DNA of 64,000 nt from a virus. Location: IMG/VR virus record IMGVR_UViG_3300025195_000002; one strand, given 5' to 3'. The notes beneath the pieces were generated by a model. The model was given only the letters and a program-made list of their open reading frames with translations. It had not been told where the DNA came from and did no database searches. Shown here one piece after another: positions 2,335 to 57,799 of the stretch. Numbering within the stretch: position 1 is the first letter of the stretch; every line of letters starts with the position of its first letter. The position numbers were made by a program, and so were the translations under genes.

Positions 2335-2375
2335 CAGCATAAACAGGTGCAGTCTAATAGACTGCACCTATGCCG
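2335..2375. terminator. Bidirectional hairpin element CAGCATA-hairpin-TATGCCG
   Basis: 10-bp stem AGGTGCAGTC/GACTGCACCT between convergent genes, flanked by inverted GCATA/TATGC arms. Confidence 0.7.
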
Positions 2376-2443
2376 TTATTGTCAGGAGCCGTGCACCTTA
2401 TACACCAGATGATGTCAATTTAATGTGACGATAAAAACTTTCC

Positions 2444-3406
2444 TTATCTTATCAGTGATTTAATCTTACAGCTATCCGTGTCAATATCATTTCTATCTAA
2501 ATACTCTAAACCTTCGCAGATATTGTTAAAGATTATTAAAACCCCATTCTCTAATTCAATAACAACGTCATCGGTTATTTTGAAGTTACCGGTAAAACGA
2601 TCCCAGGATGAATTATCATCAGAATACTTTATTAGGTATTTTAATAAATATATTCTCTTTAGATCAATTGCCCTTCTTAGACTAGATTCTTTATTGTTGA
2701 AGAATTGTACAGTATCGTTATATGTTTTAAATATTCTATATTTCCCTTCTTTAACATCTAAACATACAACAGGGGTGGTGTGTTTTCTTGCTTGGATGGG
2801 TTTATTTAACGCTTCTTCTAGAGACATACCTGTCGAGAGACGATAGTTTAAAGCGGGTAAGCTGATGTTAAACTTTTCGCATAGCTCTACATAAGTAGTT
2901 TCTACCCCAAGGTAGGTGACTGTTCTTGTAGTTCTTCTATTTAAAGCCTGCTCTTTACGACTGGCCCATTTACAATTATCTGGGCTGTAGTCTTTATCGT
3001 TATCCTTACGATCTAGCGTATAGCCCTTTGGACACTCACCCATATCCTCTAAGAAGTTTTCAAAACTATCAAGCCACCGCTTACACACTTTTATCCCACG
3101 CCCTCCGTAATTGTAATAGTCAATATTTTTAGGATTATAACACCGGCCCTTCATAGCGTGGTAATATTTATATTCCTTTTTTGCCGACATCCCGTGGACC
3201 TGGCTGGTATGTCTTACCTTTTCCTTTTGATAACATCCACAACTTGTTGATTTGTCGGATAGTAGACTCCCTGCATTAACTTTCTTTACAGAACCGCAAT
3301 CACACACACAACTCCATCTTATCTGACCGAAGCGATTATTATCAGCTCTACTTTCAACTAGCCATCGACCAAATCTCTTACCCTTTAGATCTATATACGC
3401 GCCCAT
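2444..3406 (-). CDS. Free-standing HNH-family homing endonuclease
   Basis: N-terminal DLKGKRFGRWLV..CVCDCG..SCGC; core RCYNPKNIDYYNYGGRGIKVCKRW..TLDRKDNDKDYSPDNCKWA; C-terminal HTH/NUMOD-like segments; AT-rich. Confidence 0.85.
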   Translation of the reverse strand: MGAYIDLKGKRFGRWLVESRADNNRFGQIRWSCVCDCGSVKKVNAGSLLSDKSTSCGCYQKEKVRHTSQVHGMSAKKEYKYYHAMKGRCYNPKNIDYYNYGGRGIKVCKRWLDSFENFLEDMGECPKGYTLDRKDNDKDYSPDNCKWASRKEQALNRRTTRTVTYLGVETTYVELCEKFNISLPALNYRLSTGMSLEEALNKPIQARKHTTPVVCLDVKEGKYRIFKTYNDTVQFFNNKESSLRRAIDLKRIYLLKYLIKYSDDNSSWDRFTGNFKITDDVVIELENGVLIIFNNICEGLEYLDRNDIDTDSCKIKSLIR

Positions 3407-3433
3407 TAGTAATACTCTTTAATTAAAAATAAA

Positions 3434-3439
3434 GTCATA
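3434..3439 (-). promoter_or_regulatory. Candidate late promoter TATGAC for the HNH gene
   Basis: TATG motif about 28 nt upstream of the 3406 start, just downstream of the upstream gene's terminator. Confidence 0.35.
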
Positions 3440-3459
3440 GTATTTCATAGATAACGTAT

Positions 3460-3484
3460 AAAAAGTAGGTCCGAAGACCTACTT
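3460..3484 (-). terminator. Intrinsic terminator with cUUCGg loop
   Basis: On the minus strand: AAGTAGGT-CTTCGG-ACCTACTT followed by T residues, directly after the 3488 stop. Confidence 0.75.
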
Positions 3485-3487: not shown

Positions 3488-4273
3488 TTAAACTCCTGAC
3501 GATGTCAGTTTGATATGTCTGTAATAAGACTCTTTATCATCGCAGAACGCAATCTTTTTCCAACGTGTAGTTAGGTATTCCTGATATAACTCTTCCGAGT
3601 CTGCAAAACCTTCTACTATATCACGATAGACACCCAGGCTCTGTCCACCATGCAATCTAGCGGTATCGATACTAATCATTGATTGATTATAGATATAGCT
3701 CTTTACGGCGTACTCTACTAACTTGGTAAAAGCTGGGATAGTACGCGGGTTTAAGTTCTGCATTTCAGGATCATTGCTGACAATACAACGTAACGATGCA
3801 TTGCTACTAAGTATACTTTCAGATTCTACATGAATAGTATTCTCTTCAATCAAAGAAACCGAAGAAGTACTATTAATTTCATAACCGTTAGCTGCATCCA
3901 ATACATTCAAAGATTCACGTATCAACGATGAGGTTGTCTGATAGGTACTTGTTGCTTCGTTTTCATTAAAGCCAATACTCATCACCGATATGATACTTCT
4001 TCCCATTGTTGCTGTTTTAGGGATAACATAGATTTGATGACTTCCATCATCATACATCTTTTTAGCGGTACTCAGAGATATCTCAACCTGAATACCTCCT
4101 ACTAAATTACAGTCAACCAATACCCGTGGTTTTACCACTTTTGCTAATATCTGAGATTCAACCGATACTGGGTAATTAATTACATTGTATCGCTTATCTA
4201 TGAAGACTTGGCGCAGTACCTCCATGGGGATCTTAAACGTTATATCCTGTATAGCTTTTTGAATAGGGTTCAT
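3488..4273 (-). CDS. Conserved phiKZ-like protein (possibly virion-associated), divergent from PhuZ
   Basis: 261-aa ORF MNPIQKAIQDITFKIP...; position divergent from the tubulin as recalled for phiKZ-like phages. Confidence 0.7.
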   Translation of the reverse strand: MNPIQKAIQDITFKIPMEVLRQVFIDKRYNVINYPVSVESQILAKVVKPRVLVDCNLVGGIQVEISLSTAKKMYDDGSHQIYVIPKTATMGRSIISVMSIGFNENEATSTYQTTSSLIRESLNVLDAANGYEINSTSSVSLIEENTIHVESESILSSNASLRCIVSNDPEMQNLNPRTIPAFTKLVEYAVKSYIYNQSMISIDTARLHGGQSLGVYRDIVEGFADSEELYQEYLTTRWKKIAFCDDKESYYRHIKLTSSGV

Positions 4274-4354
4274 GGGTATACACTCATAGTCAGGTTACAA
4301 TTTATTTATTCACTTCATACTTTATCGAACAATCTAGGAATAAGAGGCGATTTA

Positions 4355-5320
4355 ATGAGTAAACATACCTTAAGAATCTACGCAGCAGGCGGCTGTGCAG
4401 CCAACTTAGCGACTCCCTTTGTTGGTCTTGAATCATCAGATATCTACGCCGACATTAATCCTGTTTTCGTAGACACCAGCATGTCAAACATTGAAGACCC
4501 TATCATAGAGGATATGTGTTACATTCTCCCTGATGTGGATGGTTCAGGTAAAGTGCGCCGCGAGAACCACCAGCGTATTGCTGATTCAATCAAAGATATC
4601 ATCTCTATCCATCCTCCAGGTGATTTCAACATCGTAATGTTTTCAGCTGCCGGCGGTTCAGGTTCAGTGGCTGGCCCGCTTATTGCTCGCCAGCTGTTAA
4701 ATAGCGAAGTACCGTTCATTTGTATTGTGGTAGGTTCTACAGATTCAGCAATTACGTGTACTAATACGTTGAATACGCTGAAGTCTCTGGACAACATTTC
4801 CAAGACAGCTGATTTACCAATCACGTTGTTCTACGAAGAAAACAGCGGCAACGTTAAGCGTTCAGAAATCGATAAACGTGTTCGTGCAGCCATTGGTGCT
4901 ATTAGCGCCCTGGTGTCTGGTAACAACAAAGAGTTGGATACTAAAGATGTATCAACTTGGATTTACTACAACCGTGCTTCAAAAGTAGCGCCGCAGCTAA
5001 GTCAGTTGGCTATCATGCACGACAACACTACAGTAGAGGGGGTTAACGAACCTATCTCTATTGCATCATTGCTGGCTGATCCAGATACCGCCATGCCTGA
5101 AGCAGCCCCGGACTATCAGTGCATTGGCTATCACCGTGACGAGTCTGGCGAGATTCCTGATATGCATTTGGTTATCTCAACGACTGGTGTTTCGCGTATC
5201 TACGAAGGTATCTCAAAAGCTTTCGGTACTTATGAGAAAGCAACCTCTAAGCGTTCATTGGATCGTAAAACGTTCATCGGCGATAACGATGAAACCACTA
5301 ATGACGACATGGTACTCTAA
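4355..5320 (+). CDS. phuZ: Phage tubulin PhuZ
   Basis: True start ATG 4355 after GAGG (MSKHTLRIYAAGGCAAN); tubulin signature SAAGGSGS; short C-terminal tail ending DDMVL. Confidence 0.93.
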   Translation: MSKHTLRIYAAGGCAANLATPFVGLESSDIYADINPVFVDTSMSNIEDPIIEDMCYILPDVDGSGKVRRENHQRIADSIKDIISIHPPGDFNIVMFSAAGGSGSVAGPLIARQLLNSEVPFICIVVGSTDSAITCTNTLNTLKSLDNISKTADLPITLFYEENSGNVKRSEIDKRVRAAIGAISALVSGNNKELDTKDVSTWIYYNRASKVAPQLSQLAIMHDNTTVEGVNEPISIASLLADPDTAMPEAAPDYQCIGYHRDESGEIPDMHLVISTTGVSRIYEGISKAFGTYEKATSKRSLDRKTFIGDNDETTNDDMVL

Positions 5321-5335: not shown

Positions 5336-5372
5336 GCATACCGCCTCCCTAGCTAGGGAGGCGTCTATGCCG
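5336..5372 (+). terminator. Hairpin + TATGCCG element after phuZ
   Basis: GCATA, perfect palindrome CGCCTCCCTAG/CTAGGGAGGCG, then TATGCCG at 5366-5372. Confidence 0.7.
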
Positions 5373-5387: not shown

Positions 5388-5401
5388 GACACCTACATTA
5401 C
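5388..5401 (+). promoter_or_regulatory. Early (virion RNAP) promoter-like motif GACACCTACATTAC
   Basis: Recurrent motif whose 3' part matches the phiKZ early consensus TATATTAC; upstream of the small-ORF array. Confidence 0.65.
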
Positions 5402-5440
5402 TACAATAGATATCCCTAACAATCTATAAGAGGTAGCGAA

Positions 5441-7235: not shown

Positions 7236-7644
7236 AATAGACATACCCACTACCGATCGCTCAGAGGATATGTTTTTTATCGTAGACTCGAGCGATTTTG
7301 CACTGCGTCTGGATCCATCAGACGCAGCTGCATTAGAAACATTTTCATTAAATTATCGTGATATAGTGGTAATAGGTGCTACTGCTTCTATTTACAGTCA
7401 GTACGACGCTATTCCAGTAAAAGATCATGTAGAGGGCGAGCTATATACCCTACTAGATAGCTATAATGAACGAGGCGTTGATGAAGATAACTATAATGCA
7501 TTTATGCATGTCATTCAACTTGCCTTACGCATAGCGTGGCCTATAAGTAATGCGGTCCATAATTTACAGAGGCAATTCCCACATACGGAAATATTTGAAG
7601 TCGATGTATTACCAGATGGCACTATTATGTTTAGATACCAGTAA
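7219..7644 (+). CDS. Small ORF array member 5 (hypothetical)
   Basis: Start 7219 chosen from AGGAG spacing; FFIVDS ... GTIMFRYQ. Confidence 0.72.
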   Translation: MSTVTRIDIPTTDRSEDMFFIVDSSDFALRLDPSDAAALETFSLNYRDIVVIGATASIYSQYDAIPVKDHVEGELYTLLDSYNERGVDEDNYNAFMHVIQLALRIAWPISNAVHNLQRQFPHTEIFEVDVLPDGTIMFRYQ

Positions 7645-8024
7645 TGGAACGATATATGAAACTATTAATCGATCTTCCTTTAGATCGTCCGCCATACCCA
7701 CCTATGGCTACGCTTACACCTAACGACATTATTGAAGCATCGGTCGCATTGTGGATAGATCAATATATTGACGATGATAGATTGGATAGCAATACTGTCG
7801 AACAAGTAGTTGATTATATCAATAGCCGTATGGGGGTGAGTATGGGTAAATGTGAAGTACAGGAACTTATATATTACTATGTTAACGATATTGTTATGGA
7901 AACGTACGAGGCTGTGGAGTGTGTTATGAAACGGATTACTTTACTATCAAGATCCAGACCTCTAGTTACCCTAGTAGCAATAGACTTTCCTACTATTGTA
8001 TTGGAACTATACCAGGATGACTAG
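7644..8024 (+). CDS. Small ORF array member 6 (hypothetical)
   Basis: 126 aa; TAATG coupling; LLIDL ... PTIVLELY. Confidence 0.75.
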   Translation: MERYMKLLIDLPLDRPPYPPMATLTPNDIIEASVALWIDQYIDDDRLDSNTVEQVVDYINSRMGVSMGKCEVQELIYYYVNDIVMETYEAVECVMKRITLLSRSRPLVTLVAIDFPTIVLELYQDD

Positions 8025-8364
8025 TAACATACTACTTATGGACTGTAGTAATTTACAGTCCATTTATGACGTTATGATTGCAATATGGCGCTATGAAACT
8101 AAAGGCCCTGTAGCAATTACTATAGATGCATTGGTTGAACTTGTCCTAGAAGAGTATAAGAAAGATAATACATTATCAGACGATTCAGTTGCTAGATTTT
8201 TAGAAGAAGAATATGGTTTACCTATGATAACTGACGGCTTGATGCGTTACTTTGCTACCTTTTGTCGACATGTAAAAATAATACATGAGTCAGTTAAGGG
8301 TATGCGTGGCACCTACCACTATATCTGTTTGAAGAACGATACGATTTATCTGGAGTTAGAGTGA
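8017..8364 (+). CDS. Small ORF array member 7 (hypothetical)
   Basis: Likely ATG 8017, overlapping the previous stop; ILLMDC ... DTIYLELE. Confidence 0.72.
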   Translation: MTSNILLMDCSNLQSIYDVMIAIWRYETKGPVAITIDALVELVLEEYKKDNTLSDDSVARFLEEEYGLPMITDGLMRYFATFCRHVKIIHESVKGMRGTYHYICLKNDTIYLELE

Positions 8365-9552: not shown

Positions 9553-9703
9553 GTAGCGTTACCGAGTTTGAGACCCTCGGCGGCGTTCATGATCTTGAGC
9601 CAGAAGATCAATGAAGGTAGTCACGCACCTTCTTGTTATGTTGTCAAACGTAGTGGTTAACCCCTTCCATGTCTGCCTCTAGGCATGGAAGGGTTCTATG
9701 CCG
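9553..9703 (+). ncRNA. Candidate structured small RNA
   Basis: Lies between a promoter-like motif and a hairpin+TATGCCG element; several internal hairpins; no ORF with an RBS. Confidence 0.35.
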
Positions 9704-9712: not shown

Positions 9713-9775
9713 TGTTTTCAATTTTACAGTCCCCGGTTATATCATGAAGTGAAATTAAAATAAGTGAGCGTTGAC

Positions 9776-11919: not shown

Positions 11920-12312
11920 ATGACTACTAATTATTTAAAGTACCCTACCCATCGAAAGGTAGATAAAATAGAGACGGTAATAAAAAAATTCAATGTTGGA
12001 GACCGTGTAGTAGCAATGGTTGATATTGCCGATACGGAGTTTGGAATGCCGTATGCTAAGGTAGGTGATGTCTTACGTATACTTGATATTAGGGGGTCAG
12101 GGAAGATAAACCCAATAGTAGTGTGTCATGAGTTAGGTGTAGATGAAATTAACACACCGCTTATGGCACCTGATGATCTTGACGGGAAGTCGTTAAAGGA
12201 CCTAGCCTTCTTTGTGAATGAGCGTGAGATTAAAAAAACAGTGTCTAATCCGTTTATGGATCGATTCCCGTTAAAGGGAGACCGTTACGTAGACCCATCA
12301 AAACGAAAGTAG
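11920..12312 (+). CDS. Hypothetical protein, possible SH3/KOW-like fold
   Basis: FNVGDRVVAMVD..AKVGDVLRILD pattern; AAGGTG RBS. Confidence 0.6.
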   Translation: MTTNYLKYPTHRKVDKIETVIKKFNVGDRVVAMVDIADTEFGMPYAKVGDVLRILDIRGSGKINPIVVCHELGVDEINTPLMAPDDLDGKSLKDLAFFVNEREIKKTVSNPFMDRFPLKGDRYVDPSKRK

Positions 12313-12320
12313 TATAATGA

Positions 12321-12370
12321 CAGCATAAGTAGGAAGATCTAGCAGTTACGCTAGATCTTCCTGTATGCCG
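12321..12370. terminator. Bidirectional CAGCATA-hairpin-TATGCCG element
   Basis: 13-bp stem AGGAAGATCTAGC/GCTAGATCTTCCT between convergent genes; TATGCCG abuts the minus-strand stop at 12371. Confidence 0.75.
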
Positions 12371-13459
12371 TTATAAGAGGAGCTTAAGACCTTCCAACTC
12401 AATCTCTAAGAGATCGCGTAAGATGCCGTGAGGGGCCGTCTTGGACGCCTTGTCGCTACGTGCGCGCCTTAACTCACGATTAAGTGCATTTTCAAAGTCT
12501 CTATCTTGACCTTGATTGGTAGTTAGATACCACGACACCGCATGTTTAATCCAAGGTAACCAGACTAACCAGAGGATCCAGCTAATCTGCCGCGTCCCAA
12601 CTAGTTTATTAAAAGGCAGACTGTCTCGCAATGATTGATCCAAACGCAACGGGATATTATCTAATACGTCATCTATCGATGAGTTTGCTTTTAATAAATC
12701 TACCACAATATCCGGGTACTCCTTGTCAACGCTATTTTCATAATTAGGCAGTGCAAGGATTGGTCGAAGTATAGATTCGGTCTGTGGCTCATCACGATAT
12801 ATACGTAGATAGCGGTTAAATAAACTAATGGTTAATTGACTATCTAACATATTAGCTAATACGTATTGGTAGACGAACTGACCTGTCGAACCTTGTTCTT
12901 CTATAGGTTTACGAGATTCTATCTCAGCCCATGTCTTGTATTGAACAGCAAGTAGTGGTATATCAACCATTATCACGGAATACCCTACGTCACTGTTTTG
13001 TTCTTGTCCATCAGGAAGGTTCAAGTTTAAGTCACTATTAGGATGATATAAGACACGTAATGCGTTAGTCTCTGACCAACTACTTAATAACCCTTCAGCT
13101 GTCCACGAAGGTCTAGTTAGTGTACCAGAGACAACAATGTCAGCAACGTTACCACCGTAAAATTCCCCTTCTAATGCAGGGTAGGTATTTATCTCGGTAC
13201 TAATACGTTGACCATGTGCTACTTCAGCCGCTACATCTTCTATATAGTCGTAATAACGCATCATGTTCATGGCGTTCATGGGTGGAAGGCTATCTAGGAG
13301 TTTAATAATCGGATGCGTGTCTTTCAAACGTCTAGGTGAACTTACTGCCTTGGCTTTAACTCGCTCTAAGGCTTTTTCTAATCCACGCTGAGCTTGGAAT
13401 AGACCCGCAAACACTCGTTGGTTGCGGTTTGGAGATTGTTGAGTAAAAAGCCGTTGCAT
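12371..13459 (-). CDS. Conserved phiKZ-like protein, probably virion structural (gp52-like)
   Basis: 362 aa; divergent from chimallin; preceded by TATAGTATGAC. Assignment by synteny. Confidence 0.65.
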   Translation of the reverse strand: MQRLFTQQSPNRNQRVFAGLFQAQRGLEKALERVKAKAVSSPRRLKDTHPIIKLLDSLPPMNAMNMMRYYDYIEDVAAEVAHGQRISTEINTYPALEGEFYGGNVADIVVSGTLTRPSWTAEGLLSSWSETNALRVLYHPNSDLNLNLPDGQEQNSDVGYSVIMVDIPLLAVQYKTWAEIESRKPIEEQGSTGQFVYQYVLANMLDSQLTISLFNRYLRIYRDEPQTESILRPILALPNYENSVDKEYPDIVVDLLKANSSIDDVLDNIPLRLDQSLRDSLPFNKLVGTRQISWILWLVWLPWIKHAVSWYLTTNQGQDRDFENALNRELRRARSDKASKTAPHGILRDLLEIELEGLKLLL

Positions 13460-13599: not shown

Positions 13600-13613
13600 A
13601 ACACCTATATCAT
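13600..13613 (+). promoter_or_regulatory. Early promoter-like motif AACACCTATATCAT upstream of chimallin
   Basis: Variant of RACACCTAYATTAY, about 80 nt before the chmA start. Confidence 0.55.
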
Positions 13614-15583: not shown

Positions 15584-15624
15584 AAGAAAGGGGGCCTTCG
15601 GGCTTCCCTTTCTTTTTTATGCCC
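15584..15624 (+). terminator. Intrinsic terminator ending in TATGCCC
   Basis: AAGAAAGGG...CCCTTTCTT stem with a CTTCGG loop region, T-run, then TATGCCC. Confidence 0.75.
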
Positions 15625-19815: not shown

Positions 19816-19825
19816 GGAAAAGGTT

Positions 19826-20281: not shown

Positions 20282-20315
20282 GAAGGCTGTTATATAGCAG
20301 CCTTCAATTATGCCG
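20282..20315 (+). terminator. Hairpin + TATGCCG element
   Basis: GAAGGCTG/CAGCCTTC stem; TATGCCG at 20309-20315; T-run follows. Confidence 0.7.
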
Positions 20316-22514: not shown

Positions 22515-22520
22515 TGTATG

Positions 22521-22556
22521 GTAGGAGAAAGCCGTTGCTTTCTCCTACTTATGCCG
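22521..22556 (+). terminator. Hairpin + TATGCCG element
   Basis: 12-bp stem GTAGGAGAAAGC/GCTTTCTCCTAC; TATGCCG at 22550-22556; no T-run. Confidence 0.7.
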
Positions 22557-22615: not shown

Positions 22616-22643
22616 CATAGATGCTTAAACAGCGTCTATGCCG
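22616..22643 (+). terminator. Second hairpin + TATGCCG element
   Basis: CATAGATGCT-TAAAC-AGCGTCTATG followed by CCG. Confidence 0.55.
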
Positions 22644-22754: not shown

Positions 22755-23213
22755 ATGAATACAGTATTTAAACCGATTGTTCACGAACACAATCAAGTTA
22801 GTGCCCTTCTTTCAACTATTCCTAGAATGGTAAAAGAAGAAGCTATCAGCATAGAAGCATTGAATCCAAAAACACTGGGAGCCGGCTCCCAAGATGTTGT
22901 TTTGGTCTGCGATGCGACAGGTTACACTGATGCATTGGTCCAAGCCTTTAAAGGCTTTAAAGGACTATTCACTGGGTATGAACCTCTTACTGCTTTTGAG
23001 GCGGTATCTGAAATTAACCGCACTATTAAACCCGGTGCGATAACGTTCAAACTCTTACCAATTAACCCTGATATTGATCAGCAGGAATTTATTGAAGCAT
23101 TACATGCGGTTGCGGTAAACAGCCCTAATAAACGTTTACAGCTTGTAACTTTAAGCTATTTAACTGAACTATCAGAAAACGACAAAGCATTCTTATTTAA
23201 CCTGAATGCATAA
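22755..23213 (+). CDS. Hypothetical protein (152 aa)
   Basis: GAGGT RBS. Confidence 0.7.
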   Translation: MNTVFKPIVHEHNQVSALLSTIPRMVKEEAISIEALNPKTLGAGSQDVVLVCDATGYTDALVQAFKGFKGLFTGYEPLTAFEAVSEINRTIKPGAITFKLLPINPDIDQQEFIEALHAVAVNSPNKRLQLVTLSYLTELSENDKAFLFNLNA

Positions 23214-23254
23214 CCTGTAGGGTAGGCATAACCAGCCTACCCTACATTATGCCG
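23208..23254 (+). terminator. GCATA-hairpin-TATGCCG element
   Basis: GTAGGGTAGGC/GCCTACCCTAC stem; TATGCCG at 23248-23254. Confidence 0.7.
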
Positions 23255-28188: not shown

Positions 28189-28210
28189 ACGGTAATAGTA
28201 AAAAAAGAAT

Positions 28211-28241
28211 AAGGGGTGGGCAAACGCCTACCTCTTATGCC
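28211..28241 (+). terminator. Hairpin + TATGCC element
   Basis: GGGGTGGGC-AAAC-GCCTACCTC followed by TATGCC. Confidence 0.6.
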
Positions 28242-28264
28242 TCTTACTGTAAACCACGCAATTA

Positions 28265-32609: not shown

Positions 32610-32654
32610 CGGCATAGGTAGAGGGGTTAACCCCTCTACCTTCTTTTTTTGCCG
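32610..32654. terminator. Bidirectional terminator: T-run on plus strand, TATGCCG on minus strand
   Basis: CGGCATA, then GGTAGAGGGG-TTAA-CCCCTCTACC, then a T-run ending in GCCG; between convergent genes. Confidence 0.75.
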
Positions 32655-32692
32655 TCAGACTGTCGATTTTTACATAGTAAATAGATAATATG

Positions 32693-38803: not shown

Positions 38804-38834
38804 AGGTCTGCCCTATAAGGGCAGACCTATGCCC
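38804..38834 (+). terminator. Hairpin + TATGCCC element
   Basis: AGGTCTGCCC/GGGCAGACCT stem. Confidence 0.65.
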
Positions 38835-39990: not shown

Positions 39991-40039
39991 CGCATAAAAG
40001 GAGAGGGCTAGACCCTCTCCTTATGTCTTTTCTTTTTTA
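39991..40039. terminator. Bidirectional CGCATA-hairpin-TATGTC element
   Basis: GGAGAGGG/CCCTCTCC stem between convergent genes. Confidence 0.65.
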
Positions 40040-46348: not shown

Positions 46349-46774
46349 TTGAACCAAGCAATGGTAACCCTTCCACCTTTAGATAGCATTGGCGCGCAAA
46401 TAGCGTTATCAGAGGCGTATGACCACACTTATGGGATCTTTAATTACGATAGTGCACAGTACAATCCATTAAGTATTGTTGCCATGCATCCTATTGAAGA
46501 CACATTAAAGGTAGGTCTGCGTCCTTTTATTATCAAACGCTTTCGCATCTATGATATTCAGAAGCGGTATGGGTTATCATTAACTGAGTTACTTGCTTTA
46601 CCTCGTGACATGGTTACTGATATTTTTGATGACGCAGCAAAAGCTATTACTGAAGAAGAAGAGCAGATGCAGCAGATTCAAGAAGAAATGAAAGAAGCGG
46701 TAGCTGAACAAAAGGCGGCAAAACGAAAGTCCATGCGGGCTCAGAAAATCAGAGGAAAGTTAAAGAAGAAGTAG
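46349..46774 (+). CDS. Putative T4 gp51-like baseplate hub assembly factor
   Basis: YDIQKRYGLSLTELLALPRDM resembles the gp51 YSLxEIxxMxP pattern; start may be ATG 46361. Confidence 0.45.
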   Translation: MNQAMVTLPPLDSIGAQIALSEAYDHTYGIFNYDSAQYNPLSIVAMHPIEDTLKVGLRPFIIKRFRIYDIQKRYGLSLTELLALPRDMVTDIFDDAAKAITEEEEQMQQIQEEMKEAVAEQKAAKRKSMRAQKIRGKLKKK

Positions 46775-46801
46775 AAGGGGGGTAGACCCCCTTCTATGCC
46801 G
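46772..46801 (+). terminator. Hairpin + TATGCCG element
   Basis: TAGAAGGGGG/CCCCCTTCTA stem; TATGCCG at 46795-46801. Confidence 0.68.
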
Positions 46802-46873
46802 TATAAGTTACCTTTTACAGAATCAAGAAACCCTATAGATTCTTAATCCGAATTAAAATAAAAAAGGATTACA

Positions 46874-48663: not shown

Positions 48664-48677
48664 GACACCTATATTAC
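48664..48677 (+). promoter_or_regulatory. Early promoter-like motif GACACCTATATTAC
   Basis: Full match including TATATTAC. Confidence 0.65.
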
Positions 48678-48716
48678 CTAACAGGTTCCCACCCATAACT
48701 AACCTAAGGTGATATA

Positions 48717-48929: not shown

Positions 48930-48937
48930 TCGTTATA

Positions 48938-48968
48938 AAGAAGGGTATACCACAACCCTTCTTTTTTT
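48938..48968 (+). terminator. Intrinsic terminator
   Basis: AAGAAGGGT/ACCCTTCTT stem followed by a T-run. Confidence 0.7.
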
Positions 48969-50025: not shown

Positions 50026-50742
50026 ATGTCTGAAGAAAATCAAAACCCAGAATCCACGGATAGCCAAGGTGAATCGGTGGAAAAAGCTCAACCCACCAAA
50101 CGTACATCATCTCGTAGTAAACGTGGTAACCGAAAATCAAACCCAGCGCCAGCTCCTAAAGCCGAGGATAAGCCGGTAGAAAAGCCAGAAGCCAGCGCCG
50201 AAAAGCAAGTTGAAACTGAAGCTGAAGTGCCTGAAGTTAACGCTGTAGCGCCTGAAGTACCAGAGACACCGGTTACTGAGCCTGAAGCCCCTAAAGAAGA
50301 AGTGGCTAAGGACCTTGATGTTAGCGTTATTGGCGGGACCATTATCTCTCAGGTACGCGATTATGCTGAGGCGATGAATAAAGGTCGTCCAATGGATGCT
50401 GCGCGCGGTGCCTCACAGCAACTATTGCTACATCGTGCCATTCAACGCATCTTTAATCTCGAAGGTAAAGAGTTCTATACCGTCTTTAAAGAAGTGTTGG
50501 CTATTATCAATGAAAACCGGGACGGCGCATTCCACGAAAAACGCCTCTATCGCTTCATTGATCAGGTTAAGATGTCTACTGCTGACCGTAAGTCTTTTGA
50601 ACGTTTGTTGAATCTCTTCATTACCGTTTGTGATCCAGCACAACGCCAACAGGCACTTAAGCAAGTTGACATTGAGTCAGTAGCCGGTACTCTGCGTAAC
50701 GGTGAAAAAGAACAGAAGTTGATTTCCTTCTTTGGGGGTTAA
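50026..50742 (+). CDS. Conserved phiKZ-like protein with a disordered acidic/Pro N-terminus
   Basis: 238 aa; C-terminal helical domain GAFHEKRLYRF...FERLLNLF. Confidence 0.72.
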   Translation: MSEENQNPESTDSQGESVEKAQPTKRTSSRSKRGNRKSNPAPAPKAEDKPVEKPEASAEKQVETEAEVPEVNAVAPEVPETPVTEPEAPKEEVAKDLDVSVIGGTIISQVRDYAEAMNKGRPMDAARGASQQLLLHRAIQRIFNLEGKEFYTVFKEVLAIINENRDGAFHEKRLYRFIDQVKMSTADRKSFERLLNLFITVCDPAQRQQALKQVDIESVAGTLRNGEKEQKLISFFGG

Positions 50743-50774: not shown

Positions 50775-50814
50775 CCACCACCCGTTCTCCAGGGCGGGTA
50801 GTGGTTTTATGCCG
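50775..50814 (+). terminator. Hairpin + TTTTATGCCG element
   Basis: CCACCACCCG/CGGGTAGTGG stem; TATGCCG at 50808-50814. Confidence 0.62.
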
Positions 50815-50835: not shown

Positions 50836-50849
50836 TACCCCTATATTAC
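50836..50849 (+). promoter_or_regulatory. Early promoter-like motif TACCCCTATATTAC
   Basis: Contains TATATTAC. Confidence 0.55.
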
Positions 50850-50906
50850 TATTATGATTCAATGCCCTTATTGAATTGCGCTAATATAACATAAAGAGTA
50901 TAAATA

Positions 50907-51305
50907 ATGAACGATAAACTAAGCCTTTTAAAAACTTTTCACAATAACTATTGGGTAAAATATAAGATAGGAGCTGCGCTAATCGCTCAAGGCGAGGTAC
51001 ACTCCATGGTGTCTACGCGACTGGATGGACTACGTTACCTATTTGAAGTCAGCGGTTTCCCCTATAGCGCTTTAGCAAAAAGCTTTTTTGATAACCACAG
51101 TCATACTCTTAAACGTGGGTTAATCGAAATCGGGTTGATGTCAGGTAGTGTTGAAGAACGGGTGTTACTGATGGCAAATATCGAGCAGCAACTTATCGAC
51201 CGTATAGCCCAATATGCTGATGACGGCATTAGTGAATCAATGGCCTGTGAAGCAATTATAAAAACCATTAGCCTATGTCCAAATAGTGAAGTAAAGTTAA
51301 GTTAA
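50907..51305 (+). CDS. Hypothetical protein (132 aa)
   Basis: ORF between an early motif and a bidirectional terminator. Confidence 0.6.
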   Translation: MNDKLSLLKTFHNNYWVKYKIGAALIAQGEVHSMVSTRLDGLRYLFEVSGFPYSALAKSFFDNHSHTLKRGLIEIGLMSGSVEERVLLMANIEQQLIDRIAQYADDGISESMACEAIIKTISLCPNSEVKLS

Positions 51306-51306
51306 A

Positions 51307-51366
51307 CAGCATAAATACCATCCTACCTTTTATCAGGTAGGATGGCTTATGACGTCTTTTTTTTTT
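51307..51366. terminator. Bidirectional CAGCATA-hairpin-TATGACG element
   Basis: CCATCCTACCT/AGGTAGGATGG stem between convergent genes; long T-run. Confidence 0.72.
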
Positions 51367-51368
51367 AA

Positions 51369-53282
51369 TTAAGAATGTATTGGATGATCTATTCCTTTCT
51401 CTTTTGTAAACTCAAAAAGAAGTTCATTCATACTTGGCATCGATAGCATCTCTCGACACACCTCTACTGCATTAGTTTGTGCGGCGGTCATGTTAATAGC
51501 TACCCGCCGATAAACATCATCACTTTTACCTAATATCTTACAAAACTCCAATATAGTCGTTTCACGAGAAGCATTAGTGATAATCCCTATGTTTGGATAA
51601 CCTGCCGCTACATCCAAATCAGATACTGCAACAGATAGTCCAGTTTCTATAGTGGGATCTTCCTCGATTAGGTTTAATCCACGCTTGTGGATCAGATGAC
51701 TGGGTAGAGTCGTTATCCACCCTTGTAGTGAGGGTAGCAGCGCATCGATCTCAGCTACCATCTCATCACTGGTTGATCCCATTACCAACCCTTCTTCCTC
51801 CTCACAAACAAAATGTAAGTCATCAGCCAGACGTCGAGGAGTAGAAGGGAACTTTGCTAGATCAGAATGGCCTAACAATATCCTCATCTTTTTAATATCC
51901 GTTTGATCCTCATCTAGTAATTCAACTGCAATACAGTCAAAGGAGTTATAGATTAAATATTCAGCAGGATAGTGCGTTTGCATGAACTGATGCCACTCTA
52001 ACCCCTTAAAACCATCAGCCTCTTCAAACTTTAACTTAGATAAGTTAAGGTGTCTATTTAGTATAGCATCTAAACTATAAGAGGGCTGTTGAGCTTCAGT
52101 GACACGAAGCTTTTTATACAAACACATTGAATCGATGAAGTAGAAGCCAGCCGGGGCGATGACCGTATGCCAAAGGTCAGCAACGTGTTGAGAGTAGGTT
52201 TTACCATCAGCCTTGGTTTTCTGTAGCTGTCCTTCCTTATACCTAAAGTATTTATACTCTGGAGGAATACGAGGGTCGCTAAAAACCTCAGCAGGGTCTT
52301 CGCCATGACGTTTACACGACTCTATCATTTTAGGCACATCAAAGTTCATGTTCCAGATAAGGATAAAGTCAGGTTGCCATTGGTGTGCACGCTTTAATAG
52401 AGCACGGGTTACCTCAAAGTCATTTTCTACAATTTCAACTTCAAGGTTGATGTTTCTCTCTTTCTTGTATTTTTCAAGATAAAGTTCAAATAACCCTTCA
52501 ACGATAGGCACTGCCTTACCCTGTATGCGCGCAGCAAAACGCTTAGTGACAGCAATAAACACCTTATCTTTCATGGTTAATGAACCAGAGATAATTGGCT
52601 GTTCGTATGGCTTGCGTTCTTTCTGTAAGCTAACGATCTCTTCACGTTCTAACTTTAACTGTTCGTTAATGCGCTTAACATCTTTAGCACCCTTTGGATC
52701 TTTGGCTGCCTCTTCTGCCTGTTGACGAAGATGATCCATACGAGCTTGGGATTGTCCAATACGTTCATCGTAACGTTTACATACTGCTTTATCGTCAGGG
52801 TGTAAGTGCTCGAAAACGGTATTTGTCTCTAAATCGAGTACCGCATTATTGGCATCATAACGCGCATCGTTATATTCTGGATAGTCTCTCATGTATTTAT
52901 GTTTGACCAATACCGTTGGCATTATATCTGTACCATAAACATAAGGACTACGATTCAACATACCTAGACGCATAAATCCAGGTGTCATACCTAATGCACG
53001 TGCAAGGTTATCCGCCAATAATACCTGCGTCGACTCGTAACGCTGGACTTTCTTACGGTCTTCCCATTCTTTTTTCTCATGGTGTGTCTGATGACCTTCA
53101 CGTGTGATATAGAATGATTTCTTAACATTTATTTTAGGGACTAGGCGCGAACGGGTCGTTCCGTCTTTAAAGTGAACTCTTTCTTTAACTAAAACTAGAT
53201 CATCTTTCTTAGTATATTGGTTAACAAAATAGTTAGCATGGATACATTCAAGACCGGCAATATCCTCTGGATTAACTGTCAC
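51369..53282 (-). CDS. Split family-B DNA polymerase, 3'-5' exonuclease + motif A subunit (phiKZ gp82-like)
   Basis: ExoI DLET, ExoII WNMNFDV, YSLDAIL, ExoIII YNSFDC and motif-A-like DLDVAAGYP; GTG 53282 after AAGGAG. Confidence 0.85.
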   Translation of the reverse strand: MTVNPEDIAGLECIHANYFVNQYTKKDDLVLVKERVHFKDGTTRSRLVPKINVKKSFYITREGHQTHHEKKEWEDRKKVQRYESTQVLLADNLARALGMTPGFMRLGMLNRSPYVYGTDIMPTVLVKHKYMRDYPEYNDARYDANNAVLDLETNTVFEHLHPDDKAVCKRYDERIGQSQARMDHLRQQAEEAAKDPKGAKDVKRINEQLKLEREEIVSLQKERKPYEQPIISGSLTMKDKVFIAVTKRFAARIQGKAVPIVEGLFELYLEKYKKERNINLEVEIVENDFEVTRALLKRAHQWQPDFILIWNMNFDVPKMIESCKRHGEDPAEVFSDPRIPPEYKYFRYKEGQLQKTKADGKTYSQHVADLWHTVIAPAGFYFIDSMCLYKKLRVTEAQQPSYSLDAILNRHLNLSKLKFEEADGFKGLEWHQFMQTHYPAEYLIYNSFDCIAVELLDEDQTDIKKMRILLGHSDLAKFPSTPRRLADDLHFVCEEEEGLVMGSTSDEMVAEIDALLPSLQGWITTLPSHLIHKRGLNLIEEDPTIETGLSVAVSDLDVAAGYPNIGIITNASRETTILEFCKILGKSDDVYRRVAINMTAAQTNAVEVCREMLSMPSMNELLFEFTKEKGIDHPIHS

Positions 53283-53317
53283 GGTGGGCTCCTTAATTAA
53301 CACGGCTATACTATTTC

Positions 53318-54726: not shown

Positions 54727-56016
54727 ATGAACCGCTTACCCCATTATTTTACTGCCTCTAACGAGGCAATTGATCATCAGTTTAACGGTGTGTTAAAGGC
54801 AGCGTTGGTTCAGCGAATCGGTGTTCTCATCGGTAAGAAAGAATCAAACGTTATTCAGGAAGCATTACCTACGTTATCTGATGTTATTAAAACACACACT
54901 GGCGTCTCACTTAAGCTTGAGCTTGTGGAGGGTATGGGTATGTTTGTAGAACTACCCTCACTGTCAGCAAACAACCCTATCGTTAATGCCTGGCGTCGTG
55001 GTCCCTGGATGACAAAACAAGGCGAAGCGTTAGTCAAAGAGGCTAATAAGCCGATTGAAGGGAGTATCGATCTTAATAAAGGTAAGGTTGATGGTGTCTT
55101 TAGTGAAACCACCCAAACGCTTTATATTGGTAAAGAATATTTCTACCATCCCTTGGTTACCTTTACACCAGAAGAGATAGCGGCGGTTATCTTGCATGAA
55201 GTAGGGCATGTCTTTACGTATTTTGAGATGCTGTCACGTACTGCTACTACAAACTACATTCTACGTGGCACCCTTGAACAGTTAATGGAAGCTAAGGATA
55301 GAAAATCAAAGATCACTATCCTTAAAGATACCGAAAAGACATCTGGTATACCATTGGGTGATTTAGATGATATCGCCGACATTGCTGATATAAAAGCAGT
55401 TAGTGTGATGTTATTTAAACAGATTGATGACGCTCAACGTAGTGAGTTAGGGTTTAGTGCCTATGATACGACGGGTGCTGAATCACTCGCCGACCAGTTT
55501 GCTGCTAGACACGGTCTAGCGTTACCTCTGGCAACTGGTTTGGATAAAGTCACCCGCATGTATGGTGATGCGGCTCACCGGTCAACGCTCACCTTTGCTG
55601 CTATTAAAGTAGCCATTTGGTCATCTTTGTTTACTGCTGCCGTCTTTACTCCTATTGCTGCTGGAATTGTAGTAGGTGTCATCACTATTAAACTACTATC
55701 GGGTATCTTAGGGGTCGCTGAATACGATGAGCTTCCTGATCGGTATAAGCGTTTACGCCATCAATTAGTCGATGGTTTAAAACGAAAAGAGATTACTGGC
55801 GAACAGGAAAAACAACTCATTTCAGAAATTAACCAGCTAGATAAGATGGTCGAGTCTGTTAACGAGCATGTTTCTTTATCGTTACTTGTACTTAACCACC
55901 TCATCCCAAGTAAACGCAAAGCAGCTAAATCTAAAGTGTTCCAGCAAGACTTAGAGTCTATGCTCGCTAACGATCTCTTTGTTAAATCAGCAGAATTAAA
56001 ACACGCGACTGCGTAA
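54727..56016 (+). CDS. Virion protein with zinc-metalloprotease motif and two TM helices (gp84-like)
   Basis: ILHEVGH, ESLADQFAARHG and a hydrophobic hairpin LTFAAIK...GILG. Confidence 0.7.
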   Translation: MNRLPHYFTASNEAIDHQFNGVLKAALVQRIGVLIGKKESNVIQEALPTLSDVIKTHTGVSLKLELVEGMGMFVELPSLSANNPIVNAWRRGPWMTKQGEALVKEANKPIEGSIDLNKGKVDGVFSETTQTLYIGKEYFYHPLVTFTPEEIAAVILHEVGHVFTYFEMLSRTATTNYILRGTLEQLMEAKDRKSKITILKDTEKTSGIPLGDLDDIADIADIKAVSVMLFKQIDDAQRSELGFSAYDTTGAESLADQFAARHGLALPLATGLDKVTRMYGDAAHRSTLTFAAIKVAIWSSLFTAAVFTPIAAGIVVGVITIKLLSGILGVAEYDELPDRYKRLRHQLVDGLKRKEITGEQEKQLISEINQLDKMVESVNEHVSLSLLVLNHLIPSKRKAAKSKVFQQDLESMLANDLFVKSAELKHATA

Positions 56017-56029
56017 GGAATAATGAATC

Positions 56030-56470
56030 ATGAAGAAGTTAAAGAAAACGGCCCAATTAGTTGGTGAGTTCAATCAACTGTTTAACCGCTGTAGCATCAA
56101 ACCTCAGGACCGTCAGGCAGTAATGTGCTTGGGTATTGCGCGTTATGTAGGCTATGAGTTAGATCTCCCAACCAGTGAAGTGCATAATCCTCGCTCTTAT
56201 TTTATTGAAATGCATAAGGGTACAATGGATGAGTTTCTTTCATCTATTAATGAGCAGTTTGTTATCGATGTTGAAACAACGGCTGACCTGGCCTTTAAAA
56301 TTTGGACAATGCGTTATAACCTACTCTTTAATCCATCGTCATTGTCGTTAGAGGGATTGATGGGTCTTTGTCAGGCGAAGAAGTTTAGTGACGCCGAATA
56401 CTCTGAAAAATGGAGTGGGTTCTGTAACCAGCTTTGCGGTACGTTAGTACAATTTACCCAACCGGAGTAA
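56030..56470 (+). CDS. Conserved virion-region protein (gp85-like)
   Basis: 146 aa; AAGGA RBS; synteny. Confidence 0.65.
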   Translation: MKKLKKTAQLVGEFNQLFNRCSIKPQDRQAVMCLGIARYVGYELDLPTSEVHNPRSYFIEMHKGTMDEFLSSINEQFVIDVETTADLAFKIWTMRYNLLFNPSSLSLEGLMGLCQAKKFSDAEYSEKWSGFCNQLCGTLVQFTQPE

Positions 56471-56474
56471 TCTC

Positions 56475-57746
56475 ATGTTGATCCCATTTGATGATCCTGC
56501 TATTTTAGAGCAGGAAAGAAGTGCTAATGCGTTAATTCAGCACGCCGTCGAGGGTATCTGCTTACTTAAAGAGATTACTCAACGTCTTAATAGCGAGGGT
56601 GCGTCCCAAGAAATAGCTATTATGATTGAGTCAATTGACACAGAAGCCCTACCAGAGCGTTACCCGAAAGAAAGCTTTACTATCGACCCAACGCCTACTA
56701 ACTTGTCGATCGCCGCTGAGAGCGCCGTACAGGCCGTTATAAAGGCATTAGGTAAAGCCTCTAAGGCCGTCATTGAGTTTATCGTTAAACTTTACAAATC
56801 CATCATTGATGTCATTAGCGGTTTATTTAATAAACTAGCTTCTGTGGTCCGTGGTCAGAAGAAGGCTAAAGAGACTGAAGCCAAGAGTAATGATCTTGGT
56901 AGTAAGTTAGATGGAGAGGCTATTAAGGACTATAACCCAGAAGACGGCAGCTATGTGCTGAATGATAAAGTTGAGTTTGAGGATGGGGATTATAAACTCA
57001 CCTTACACTACGACATTATCCAAGAAGCACTATCGCCGCTGGTTGTTAAAGTCTTTGAAAATAACCTAACGCCCGGCGAACTACAACACAACATCATGGC
57101 GGCCGTACAAGATGCTAAATCTACTAATGCGCGTTATGAAGAATTTGTGGGGGCGGTTAATGCGTTTAATGAATCCCCAGAAGATAAAACTCTACAGGCA
57201 TTGGTATCATGGCTACGCAATGAAGAAGAGCGTGAACACTTCCATGACATCTATCGTATTGCAAAAGTAGTTGGGGTTAATGACTTGTCAGAGGATTTAC
57301 ATAACCTCATGGGTCATGGTCTAGGGACACTACTTCAAACACTTAAAGACGAGGATGAGGTCCGTTACGAAGGTGATGCGAGCCAGCTTGCTATTCTTAA
57401 ACGAATGGTAAGAAGTCGTTATGACCTTGAACAACTTGAGGTGTTTGGTGATTTTGAAAAGCAGGTGAAGAAACTGGACCGTGGGATTAATGGTATTAAA
57501 AAGAATACGTTTGAATTAGTAGAACGGGGCTGGGATCCTGAGCTGCGTTCACGTGTTCAACAGTCTGTTAATGTCTATTTAGAATACTTCAGGAATCGAA
57601 GTCGTTTTAATACGCAGATCATTTCAGCCTGTGCTATCATAATTCAGTCATTAGGTCGTTTTGCTGCGGCTCAGACTACGTTTGAAGGTAAACTTTACGG
57701 TGAACTCCTACGTGTTAAAGAGCAGTATGAATACAATGTAACCTAG
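56475..57746 (+). CDS. Internal head protein (gp86-like)
   Basis: SQE and AAES motifs followed by an amphipathic helix; PKESFTIDPTPTN segment. Confidence 0.68.
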   Translation: MLIPFDDPAILEQERSANALIQHAVEGICLLKEITQRLNSEGASQEIAIMIESIDTEALPERYPKESFTIDPTPTNLSIAAESAVQAVIKALGKASKAVIEFIVKLYKSIIDVISGLFNKLASVVRGQKKAKETEAKSNDLGSKLDGEAIKDYNPEDGSYVLNDKVEFEDGDYKLTLHYDIIQEALSPLVVKVFENNLTPGELQHNIMAAVQDAKSTNARYEEFVGAVNAFNESPEDKTLQALVSWLRNEEEREHFHDIYRIAKVVGVNDLSEDLHNLMGHGLGTLLQTLKDEDEVRYEGDASQLAILKRMVRSRYDLEQLEVFGDFEKQVKKLDRGINGIKKNTFELVERGWDPELRSRVQQSVNVYLEYFRNRSRFNTQIISACAIIIQSLGRFAAAQTTFEGKLYGELLRVKEQYEYNVT

Positions 57747-57799
57747 GCGCATAAAAGCCTAACCACCTAGCCGTGAGGCCGGGTGGTTAGCTTATGCCG
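57747..57799. terminator. Bidirectional GCGCATA-hairpin-TATGCCG element
   Basis: CTAACCACC/GGTGGTTAG stem between convergent genes; TATGCCG at 57793-57799. Confidence 0.7.

Follow-up and report, generated by a model that had tools for sequence, protein, structure and literature searches.

Tailed hairpins at the gene ends of a distant chimallivirus, probable terminators for its own RNA polymerases

Hairpins followed by a short fixed tail with the core TATG close genes on both strands of the window, the 64,000-nucleotide stretch of viral DNA analyzed here (IMG/VR record IMGVR_UViG_3300025195_000002). We propose that these elements terminate transcription by the phage's own multisubunit RNA polymerases (RNAPs), with a probability of roughly 0.85, and they are a new example of a known phage terminator signal rather than a new class. 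Judged by its genes, the window belongs to a new nucleus-forming (phiKZ-like) jumbo phage, a distant chimallivirus; it codes for chimallin, PhuZ, phage multisubunit RNAP beta/beta'-like subunits, and a homologue of phiKZ gp55, with only ∼35% identity to phiKZ proteins. Its relatives in IMG/VR share about 70 to 74% nucleotide identity with it.

Anatomy and enrichment of the element

The tail has the consensus y-T-TATG-C-C-G-T and starts 0 to 4 nt past the core stem, and the stems in the window are unrelated to one another in sequence. TATGCCG is present in 16 copies (15 on the + strand), compared with 5.7 ± 2.4 in dinucleotide shuffles, none of 100 of which had at least 16. An unbiased scan of both strands yielded 43 strong hairpins. 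TATG borders 21 of them on the 3' side and two on the 5' side, against a background rate of 4.3% in random 12-nt windows (binomial P = 8e-18 for the 3'-side enrichment). The corresponding counts in the 190-kb relative G002 are 48 and 2 of 116 strong hairpins.

The coordinates listed in an earlier, sequence-only reading for TATGCCG, its variants, and the left arms were each checked and all hold (Table 1, first positions of tails and left arms), as does its remark that many copies have no U-tract: roughly half have no stretch of at least four T close to the tail. It also reported two TATGCCG copies in coding DNA; such copies are present but number four (1410, 11770, 31911, and 38982), all without a dedicated hairpin and at about the chance number. 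Absent from its list are a + strand copy at 8065, a - strand TATA-variant after hairpin 3463-3484, and a + strand T-run variant at 32642-32656.

Table 1. Candidate terminators in the window, with hairpin folding energies (dG, kcal/mol)
Feature	Coordinates	Strand	Gene context	Parts	dG
Bidirectional terminator	2335..2375	both	1732-2334 (+) / HNH endonuclease gene 2444-3406 (-)	left arm 2335-2341; hairpin 2345-2369; + tail 2369-2375; - tail TATGCTG	-18 (+), -21 (-)
Bidirectional terminator	12321..12370	both	11920-12312 (+) / 12371-13459 (-)	left arm 12321-12327; hairpin 12329-12364; + tail 12364-12370	
Bidirectional terminator	32610..32656	both	31390-32595 (+) / 32693-33073 (-)	hairpin 32616-32641; - tail TATGCCG, 32616 down to 32610; + strand TATG replaced by T-run, then TGCCGT	
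Bidirectional terminator	39991..40028	both	39679-39990 (+) / 40047-40457 (-)	left arm from 39991; hairpin 39998-40022; variant tails on both strands (+ tail from 40022)	
Bidirectional terminator	51307..51354	both	50907-51305 (+) / DNA polymerase gene 51369-53303 (-)	left arm 51307-51313; hairpin 51318-51345; + tail TATGACG 51348-51354	
Bidirectional terminator	57747..57799	both	56475-57746 (+) / virion protein gene 57801-60692 (-)	left arm 57747-57753; hairpin 57755-57793; + tail 57793-57799	∼-24, either strand
Probable variant terminator	3454..3484	-	between two - strand genes	hairpin 3463-3484, then TATA-type tail	∼-12
Terminator	5336..5372	+	after PhuZ tubulin gene 4208-5320	partial left arm 5336-5340; hairpin 5342-5363; tail 5366-5372	
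Terminator	8038..8071	+	after gene 7644-8024	hairpin 8038-8063; tail TATGACG 8065-8071	-16
Terminator	9662..9703	+	upstream of DNA polymerase gene 9764-11911	hairpin 9662-9693; tail 9697-9703, then T-run	
Terminator	15584..15624	+	after chimallin (nuclear shell) gene 13691-15562	hairpin 15584-15614; T-run; variant tail TATGCCC 15618-15624	
Terminator	20282..20315	+	after gene 19796-20257	hairpin 20282-20305; tail 20309-20315	-15.6
Terminator	22520..22556	+	after gene 21699-22514	hairpin 22520-22549; tail 22550-22556	
Second, weaker hairpin-plus-tail	22616..22643	+	same intergenic region as 22520..22556	tail 22637-22643 overlaps 3' arm of stem	-12
Terminator	23208..23254	+	after gene 22755-23213	partial left arm 23208-23212; hairpin 23216-23246; tail 23248-23254	
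Terminator	28209..28242	+	after gene 27487-28188	hairpin 28209-28238; variant tail TATGCCT 28236-28242	
Terminator	38804..38834	+	after helicase gene 37146-38678	hairpin 38804-38828; variant tail TATGCCC 38828-38834	
Terminator	46771..46801	+	after gene 46349-46774	hairpin 46771-46797; tail 46795-46801	
Terminator	50775..50814	+	after gene 50026-50742	bulged hairpin 50775-50804; tail 50808-50814	

Position at gene junctions

The mirrored arrangement previously described for convergent gene pairs is exact. At each of the six convergent junctions in the window a single hairpin has tails on both strands, whereas none of the six divergent junctions has the element (Fisher P = 0.002); the - strand gene 32693-33073 at one of the convergent junctions is real, with a match to phrog_3455 (E = 6e-26). 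One-sided copies lie at about eleven tandem junctions, and the element closes every - strand gene block. Tails at tandem junctions are 40 to 200 nt upstream of the next gene, and separate promoter-like motifs, resembling early and middle promoters, lie 20 to 45 nt downstream of the tails (e.g., early-promoter-like motifs ∼25 nt past 28209..28242 and ∼35 nt past 50775..50814). The hairpin-plus-tail at 22616..22643 may close a very short transcription unit.

These positions bear on an alternative that we regard as unlikely, in which the tail would be an ordinary nvRNAP late promoter beside a terminator hairpin, or would have a dual function, ending transcription and restarting it late. The four-base core is common to both elements (PMC4666361, PMC12809450), and TATG with a start at the G is the full known phiKZ late-promoter consensus (PMC4666361), necessary although not sufficient (PMC4666361, PMC7598289). 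A homologue of gp123, the subunit that binds TATG, is present in the close relatives of the window (8 of the 16 named pocket residues identical, 2 conservatively replaced), and the placement of tails ahead of the next gene at tandem junctions is also as expected of promoters. However, promoters at the convergent junctions would fire antisense into both genes, and phiKZ is reported to have no more than four antisense RNAs whose start is defined. The divergent junctions, where the true promoters lie, lack the element, and this junction test disfavors a promoter as the sole function. Moreover, the published late-promoter logo has nothing conserved past TATG (PMC4666361, PMC7598289), whereas the tail keeps C-C-G-T; phiKZ late promoters have no hairpin and lie upstream of late genes rather than at gene ends, and both the upstream hairpin and the downstream YYGT are absent from P119L, a bona fide example.

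Conservation and occurrence in other phages

We compared orthologous elements at six sites across three relative lineages from IMG/VR (24 sequences). The stems are 70% identical (30% at 22550), the loops 41%, and the flanks 67%; TATGCC is kept in all 24 sequences and hairpin dG stays between -16.6 and -25.8 kcal/mol throughout. The stem sequence drifts or is replaced wholesale, while its folding energy is kept and the tail is fixed. At 22520..22556 there are three unrelated orthologous stems (in the window, in L003 and L008, and in L005), all of about -20 to -21 kcal/mol and with an identical tail. At 9662..9703 the stem has only 56% identity to those of the relatives, with compensatory changes, an invariant tail, and dG of -23 to -24.5 kcal/mol in all, and at 12321..12370 L005 has a compensatory A:T to T:A swap with both tails conserved. 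Stem and tail of the PhuZ-gene terminator (5336..5372) are both conserved in L003, L005, and L008.

A motif-plus-hairpin scan beyond the window, which the sequence-only reading had called for, is positive in phiKZ (37/90 strong hairpins with a TATG tail), 201phi2-1 (10/34), and Xanthomonas phage RTH11 (19/66, versus a 0.9% background), and mirrored CATA arms are seen too in 100 kb of phiKZ. The same scan is weak in segments of Goslar and Vibrio phage pVa-21, which have few strong hairpins and weak enrichment (1/9 and 2/12); over the whole genomes, the 9-mer tail and a reversed-pattern control number 30 and 17 in Goslar and 9 and 9 in pVa-21. The tail is therefore less prominent in some members of the family than in others. 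The hairpin-plus-TATG anatomy was not found in T4 (1/13 strong hairpins) or AR9 (1/29).

Relation to published terminators

The new terminator class that had been implied was in fact already in print in 2024, as were its bidirectional copies at convergent gene pairs and the left arm. The motif derived from 61 phiKZ terminators mapped by ONT-cappable-seq is a hairpin plus TTATKYYGT (Putzeys 2024, microLife, Fig. 5B; PMC10914365), and the window's tail, TATGCCGT, fits this consensus exactly. Both phages are Chimalliviridae with their own multisubunit RNAPs, and in both a GC-rich stem-loop directly precedes a tail at gene 3' ends, with bidirectional copies at convergent genes (six reported for phiKZ). 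The phiKZ stems differ in having a common sequence vocabulary (CCYCCC/GGGRGG), the window's stems being unrelated to one another, and the window's tail is the sharper of the two (C-C-G versus Y-Y-G, and almost always G versus K).

Motif A of 201phi2-1 (n = 59), likewise a hairpin plus tail, resembles the phiKZ motif, and fifteen bidirectional sites are reported (PMC11512511). When combined with A, motif B reportedly makes the hairpin longer (PMC11512511), as the left CATA arm does in the window; the stem-extending left arm is probably motif B, an equation that is ours, as the motif letters appear in the figures only. The tail at 3454..3484 resembles that of the 201phi2-1 site at 230027, and this probable variant terminator is the weakest assignment of all. 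The eight 201phi2-1 terminator coordinates printed in PMC11512511 are all on the + strand, just past the hairpin and inside the tail, and these published ends are 3' ends, not the 5' ends that promoters would leave. For seven of the eight, the end is the second base past TATG (or TATA, in one case), a pyrimidine directly before the conserved G; for the remaining one it is the first base. The position uncertainty of ONT-cappable-seq is up to ∼2 nt, a figure given for 5' ends.

It is conceivable, but very improbable, that the tail is instead an RNA-level processing or stability signal, with a nuclease or phage RNA-binding protein recognizing single-stranded UAUGCCGU beside the hairpin and the mapped 3' ends arising by cleavage or trimming of longer read-through transcripts. 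Exonucleases are known to stall just downstream of stable hairpins, within a few nucleotides, although such stalling requires no specific tail sequence. Sequencing of 3' ends by ONT-cappable-seq gives the same picture for termination and for nuclease processing or trimming, and the conserved G and T beyond the mapped end fit a site spanning a cleavage point; conserved bases there are, however, equally expected for a polymerase pause, the +1 G being part of the consensus pause. Most such elements are classed as intrinsic terminators by Putzeys and by the 201phi2-1 authors (PMC10914365, PMC11512511), and eight 201phi2-1 elements stopped reporter expression in the uninfected host, an assay of host rather than phage RNAP (PMC11512511). 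The earlier preference for a terminator or 3'-end signal over a late promoter is supported by the junctions, the evolution of the element, its identity with the published motif, and the 201phi2-1 3' ends.

Proposed mechanism

In terminators of the phage RNAPs, the hairpin sequence would be free to vary, with pairing alone selected, and the tail, (y)T-TATG-C-C-G-T, would replace the bacterial U-tract or, in about half of the copies, join one. By homology with 201phi2-1, RNA 3' ends would form at the tails in the window's phage too, presumably by termination rather than processing, and are expected at the second C (TATGCC, before the G), 5 to 9 nt past the core stem. The hybrid left there would be mostly A/U-rich, with a 3' pyrimidine and G as the next base.

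Bacterial intrinsic terminators are alike in their stable GC-rich hairpin, an RNA 3' end ∼7 to 9 nt past the stem, bidirectional use at convergent genes, and an upstream arm that pairs with the tail, as the A-tract does with the U-tract. They differ in having that U-tract instead of a fixed mixed-sequence tail, about half of the copies of which have no T-run; the tail hybrid contains G and C and would therefore be stronger than a U-tract hybrid, placing release outside the classical model. The class II pause/termination signal of T7 RNAP is another case in which a short fixed DNA sequence, not a U-tract, sets where a phage polymerase stops, although that RNAP is single-subunit and its signal, unrelated in sequence, works without a hairpin.

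A pause at the tail is a plausible mechanism, as Y-1 and G+1 at the predicted RNA end would be the core of the consensus elemental pause (G-10 Y-1 G+1; extended, G-11 G-10 T-3 G-2 Y-1 G+1; PMC6062546, PMC6336406). A 3' end at the second pyrimidine gives the tail this Y-1 and G+1, and in 201phi2-1 the last stem bases are G-11 and G-10, with T-G-Y before the end as in the extended consensus. The tail has one more pyrimidine than T-3 G-2 Y-1, however, and the window does not keep G-10, since its tails start anywhere between 0 and 4 nt past the stem. Pausing of chimallivirus RNAPs would be a candidate step.

Because TATG doubles as the core of nvRNAP late promoters, the tails may have a second function at tandem junctions. 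At convergent gene pairs, the left tail (CATA) could pair with the right tail (TATG) and extend the stem, and a single two-tailed hairpin would stop both polymerases.

Identity of the window

Phages of the Chimalliviridae are transcribed by two multisubunit RNA polymerases (RNAPs) of their own, and the window has the gene content of such a genome, coding for chimallin, the PhuZ tubulin, RNAP beta/beta'-like subunits, and a homologue of phiKZ gp55, a subunit of the non-virion RNAP (nvRNAP). PHROG profiles also identify two DNA-polymerase pieces and a helicase. The tblastn matches of a 963-aa virion protein are to phiKZ-like jumbo phages only, the best (∼33 to 36% identity) being to Xanthomonas phage RTH11, Goslar, and Klebsiella, Vibrio, and Erwinia jumbo phages, and megablast of 6 kb of the window against the phage collection gives no match, its relatives there being recognizable at the protein level only. 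These tblastn, PHROG, and gp55 matches, with the lack of a megablast match to known phages, therefore assign the window to the Chimalliviridae as a distant and uncultured member. Its gene order is shared by nine IMG/VR contigs, with ∼70 to 74% nucleotide identity, whose chimallin is 82 to 86% identical to that of the window.

We note that the gp55-like gene is split by a group I intron (Rfam RF00028, 63.4 bits, 17622-17965), downstream of which lie a 328-aa open reading frame (18048-19034) and, from 19080, renewed exon-like homology. The ∼1.45-kb insert (17622-19079) is absent from five relatives (L001-L004 and L007), and three others (L005, L006, and L008) carry differently sized inserts at this site. 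An HNH endonuclease gene (2444-3406, minus strand; phrog_374, E = 8e-72) has terminators on either side and may be a mobile insertion.

Features of the window and its relatives
Feature	Coordinates	Basis or remark
PhuZ tubulin	4208-5320	PHROG profile
Chimallin, nuclear shell protein	13691-15562	PHROG profile
nvRNAP subunit, gp55 homologue	16279-17664	tblastn with phiKZ gp55
Two phage RNAP beta-type (beta/beta'-like) subunits	33108-37128	PHROG profile
Convergent junction	2335-2443	two-tailed hairpin
Convergent junction	12313-12370	two-tailed hairpin
Convergent junction	32596-32692	two-tailed hairpin
Convergent junction	39991-40046	two-tailed hairpin
Convergent junction	51306-51368	two-tailed hairpin
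Convergent junction	57747-57800	two-tailed hairpin
ACACCTAyATTAC(t) motif	∼5395-5410, 13600-13615, 16220-16235, 28262-28276, 48665-48680, 50845-50860
TTTTACA...yATG motif	∼9722-9750, 15650-15660, 23272-23300, 33085-33095, 46808-46830
gp123 homologue (L027)	139632-141227 of relative G002	about 32-34% identity to phiKZ gp123
gp123 homologue (L028)	183555-185147 of relative G001	about 32-34% identity to phiKZ gp123

Anatomy and abundance of the element

TATGCCG occurs 16 times in the window, 15 of them on the plus strand (on which 59 of the 72 genes are encoded), compared with 5.7 ± 2.4 in dinucleotide shuffles, none of 100 of which reached 16. A scan for perfect stems on both strands, in which the motif was not used as input, shows that hairpins with a folding energy of −16 kcal/mol or lower are nearly all followed within 0 to 4 nt by TATG plus C/A, C/T, and G/C. 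TATG is at the 3' edge of 21 of the 43 strong hairpins and at the 5' edge of two, with a frequency of 4.3% in random 12-nt windows (p = 8e-18). In a 190-kb IMG/VR relative (G002), used as a stand-in for a whole-genome count, it is at the 3' edge of 48 of 116 strong hairpins and the 5' edge of two. The aligned window tails read y-T-TATG-C-C-G-T-T, and the 21 window copies and 48 relative copies share the logo T-TATG-C-C-G-T.

The stem-loop lies directly upstream of the tail, with a gap of 0 to 4 nt or an overlap between the hairpin end and TATG, and has an energy of −15.6 to −24.8 kcal/mol except in two weak copies (3463-3484 and 22616-22640, each about −12 kcal/mol). A cutoff of −11 kcal/mol for the minimum free energy of the 48 nt upstream of every TATG is too lax, returning 87 mainly coding sites; the genuine elements are intergenic and stand apart with energies of about −15.5 kcal/mol or lower. 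The positions of the copies, variants, and left arms in the sequence-only reading are all exact, and to these we add copies at 8065, after the 3463-3484 hairpin (minus strand, a TATA variant), and on the plus strand of the 32616-32641 hairpin, where a T-run replaces TA. That reading had seen two TATGCCG copies in coding DNA; there are four (1410, 11770, 31911, and 38982), close to the chance expectation and without a dedicated hairpin.

As a class, the elements do not show the U-tract that immediately follows the hairpin in bacterial intrinsic terminators: roughly one copy in two has no stretch of at least four T by its tail, in keeping with the earlier remark that many have no U-tract, and where T-runs are present they are mostly 3' of the 7-nt tail. 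A palindromic protein-binding DNA site was also considered and rejected, as stem sequences are unrelated both among copies and among orthologues. An Rfam search of the window finds no family for the element, the intron being its sole match. Canonical-looking intrinsic terminators (hairpin plus T-run without a TATG tail) coexist with the tailed type at 1097-1113, 21226-21245, 23955-23976, and 48937-48964.

Location at gene junctions

In a simple gene model of the window (72 genes, 93% coding), all six convergent junctions hold a single hairpin with a tail on both strands, whereas the element is at none of the six divergent junctions (Fisher p = 0.002). The small minus-strand gene adjoining one of the convergent junctions (32693-33073) is real, with a match to phrog_3455. 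One-sided copies are at about 11 tandem junctions, and every block of minus-strand genes terminates in a copy. On the tail-bearing strand, a stop codon precedes every copy; the copies mark gene or operon 3' ends, bidirectionally at convergent pairs. A terminator should be distributed in this way, and a promoter in the opposite way.

The promoter alternative arises because the tail contains, by the element's own definition, the TATG core of phiKZ late promoters, in which transcription starts at the G; the core is necessary but not sufficient, and there are no other conserved bases around it (PMC4666361; PMC7598289). Against this, the 12 tails at convergent junctions aim into the 3' end of the opposite-strand gene, and the tails are not placed as nvRNAP late promoters would be, upstream of a late gene that they can transcribe. 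The validated phiKZ promoter P119L (117612) has no upstream hairpin and has TAGAC after TATG instead of YYGT, only four phiKZ antisense RNAs with a defined start are reported, and the window has separate promoter-like motifs downstream of its tails. Promoter motifs and junctions together therefore make it unlikely that the tail functions as an ordinary late promoter, although at tandem junctions it may also serve, secondarily, to restart transcription.

Two promoter-like motifs are conserved in the relatives. ACACCTAyATTAC(t) recurs in intergenic DNA 25 to 45 nt downstream of several tails and is similar to motifs published for the early (virion RNAP) promoters of EL and phiKZ (PMC7058600, Table 2). 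TTTTACA followed ∼13 nt on by yATG, also downstream of tails, is similar in layout to the phiKZ middle promoter, which combines a motif near −24 with a TATG at the start site (PMC4666361). Two hairpin-plus-tail elements (22556-22643) enclose a promoter-like sequence that is likewise conserved and ends in TATGACC, with the second terminator ∼40 nt further. This interval may represent a small RNA or a transcription unit of minimal length, comparable to the short 5'-UTR RNAs reported in phiKZ.

Relationship to mapped terminators

For phiKZ, an ONT-cappable-seq study (Putzeys et al. 2024, PMC10914365) reports 61 terminators in which TTAT-K-Y-Y-G-T follows a conserved stem-loop, as well as six bidirectional terminators between convergent genes. 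In 201phi2-1, motif A (n = 59) resembles the phiKZ motif, motif B lengthens the hairpin, 15 sites are bidirectional, and eight elements stopped two-colour reporter expression in the uninfected host (PMC11512511). The window tail, TATGCCGT, is an exact match to the degenerate tail in print, and its variants are within the published degeneracy or one position off. The same hairpin scan finds TATG at the 3' edge of 37 of 90 strong hairpins in phiKZ (1-50 kb and 100-150 kb), 10 of 34 in 201phi2-1, and 19 of 66 in RTH11 (background 0.9%), compared with 1 of 13 and 1 of 29 in the controls T4 and AR9; the Goslar and pVa-21 segments have few strong hairpins (1 of 9 and 2 of 12), and one Goslar copy adjoins a terminator annotated in the Goslar record. 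Mirrored CATA arms are present in phiKZ at 25214, 34917, and 43768 and downstream of the major head gene. By sequence, then, the window element is assignable to a known, experimentally mapped terminator type (phiKZ; 201phi2-1 motif A), and the earlier proposal of a phage-RNAP terminator class draws support from the junctions, tail conservation, and identity with the published motif.

When the stem end and the tail are combined into a 13-nt pattern, 201phi2-1 has 22 matches to it and one to the reversed control; three of the 22 fall on terminator coordinates printed in PMC11512511. The main texts of the mapping papers give eight 201phi2-1 3'-end coordinates and one from phiKZ. All eight of the former are inside the tail, on the plus strand and directly after the hairpin; seven are two bases past TATG (in one case TATA), at a pyrimidine just before the conserved G, and the other is one base past it. 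The phiKZ coordinate (270485, minus strand) follows a hairpin with a TTATATT variant tail and is consistent, though no clean TATG case. Like classical intrinsic terminators, the 201phi2-1 ends are ∼8 nt past the stem. From this homology, window transcripts should end at TATGCC|G, 5 to 9 nt past the core stem. An RNA end at a pyrimidine, with G as the next base, corresponds to the Y-1/G+1 core of the elemental pause consensus for multisubunit RNAPs (PMC6062546; PMC6336406), and in 201phi2-1 the last stem bases supply G-11 and G-10; we infer that the tail is linked to this pause.

Conservation of tail and pairing

At six orthologous terminators compared between the window (as reference) and three relative lineages, stems have 70% identity to the window overall (30% at site 22550 and 56% at site 9697), loops 41%, and flanks 67%. 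The 22550 orthologues have three unrelated stem sequences, and the 9697 stem has compensatory changes. TATGCC is kept in all 24 sequences, tail column identity scoring 90%, a figure lowered by one alignment shift, and folding energies are −16.6 to −25.8 kcal/mol throughout. The stems vary while their energy stays in this range and the tail is fixed, and selection therefore acts on stem pairing and on tail sequence.

The tail is near letter-for-letter the same from Pseudomonas and Xanthomonas phages to the environmental lineage of the window, while stems are wholly turned over, which argues that it is read sequence-specifically by the phage polymerases or a conserved partner, a point undeveloped in PMC10914365 and PMC11512511.

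A possible shared signal and its implications

We propose, with roughly one chance in five of being correct, that the terminator tail and the late-promoter core are one signal read by one protein pocket. Once the hairpin has formed, the bubble of the elongating nvRNAP would expose non-template TATG, which would be captured by the beta-lobe pocket of the gp123-like subunit that fixes the start site at promoters. The polymerase would scrunch in two further bases, as in sigma-dependent pauses, and stall ahead of the conserved G, and the hairpin would then release the RNA; such capture during elongation could make the tail sequence-specific. A homologue of gp123, which in phiKZ binds the promoter TATG in its pocket, is not in the window but is present in two relatives, with a partly conserved pocket in which 8 of 16 named residues are identical and two (aromatic) are conservatively replaced. 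If true, the proposal would account for the invariance of TATG, in place of just any A/U-rich run, among chimalliviruses with proteins only ∼35% identical, and would show how a multisubunit RNAP can terminate sequence-specifically.

The phiKZ nvRNAP is a purified and structurally characterized enzyme, and the promoter core inside the tail, with mapped 3' ends two bases beyond its G, makes a concrete biochemical test possible. The hairpin-plus-tail rule distinguishes terminator TATGs from promoter TATGs and makes it possible to delimit transcription units on contigs of uncultured chimalliviruses by their sequence only.
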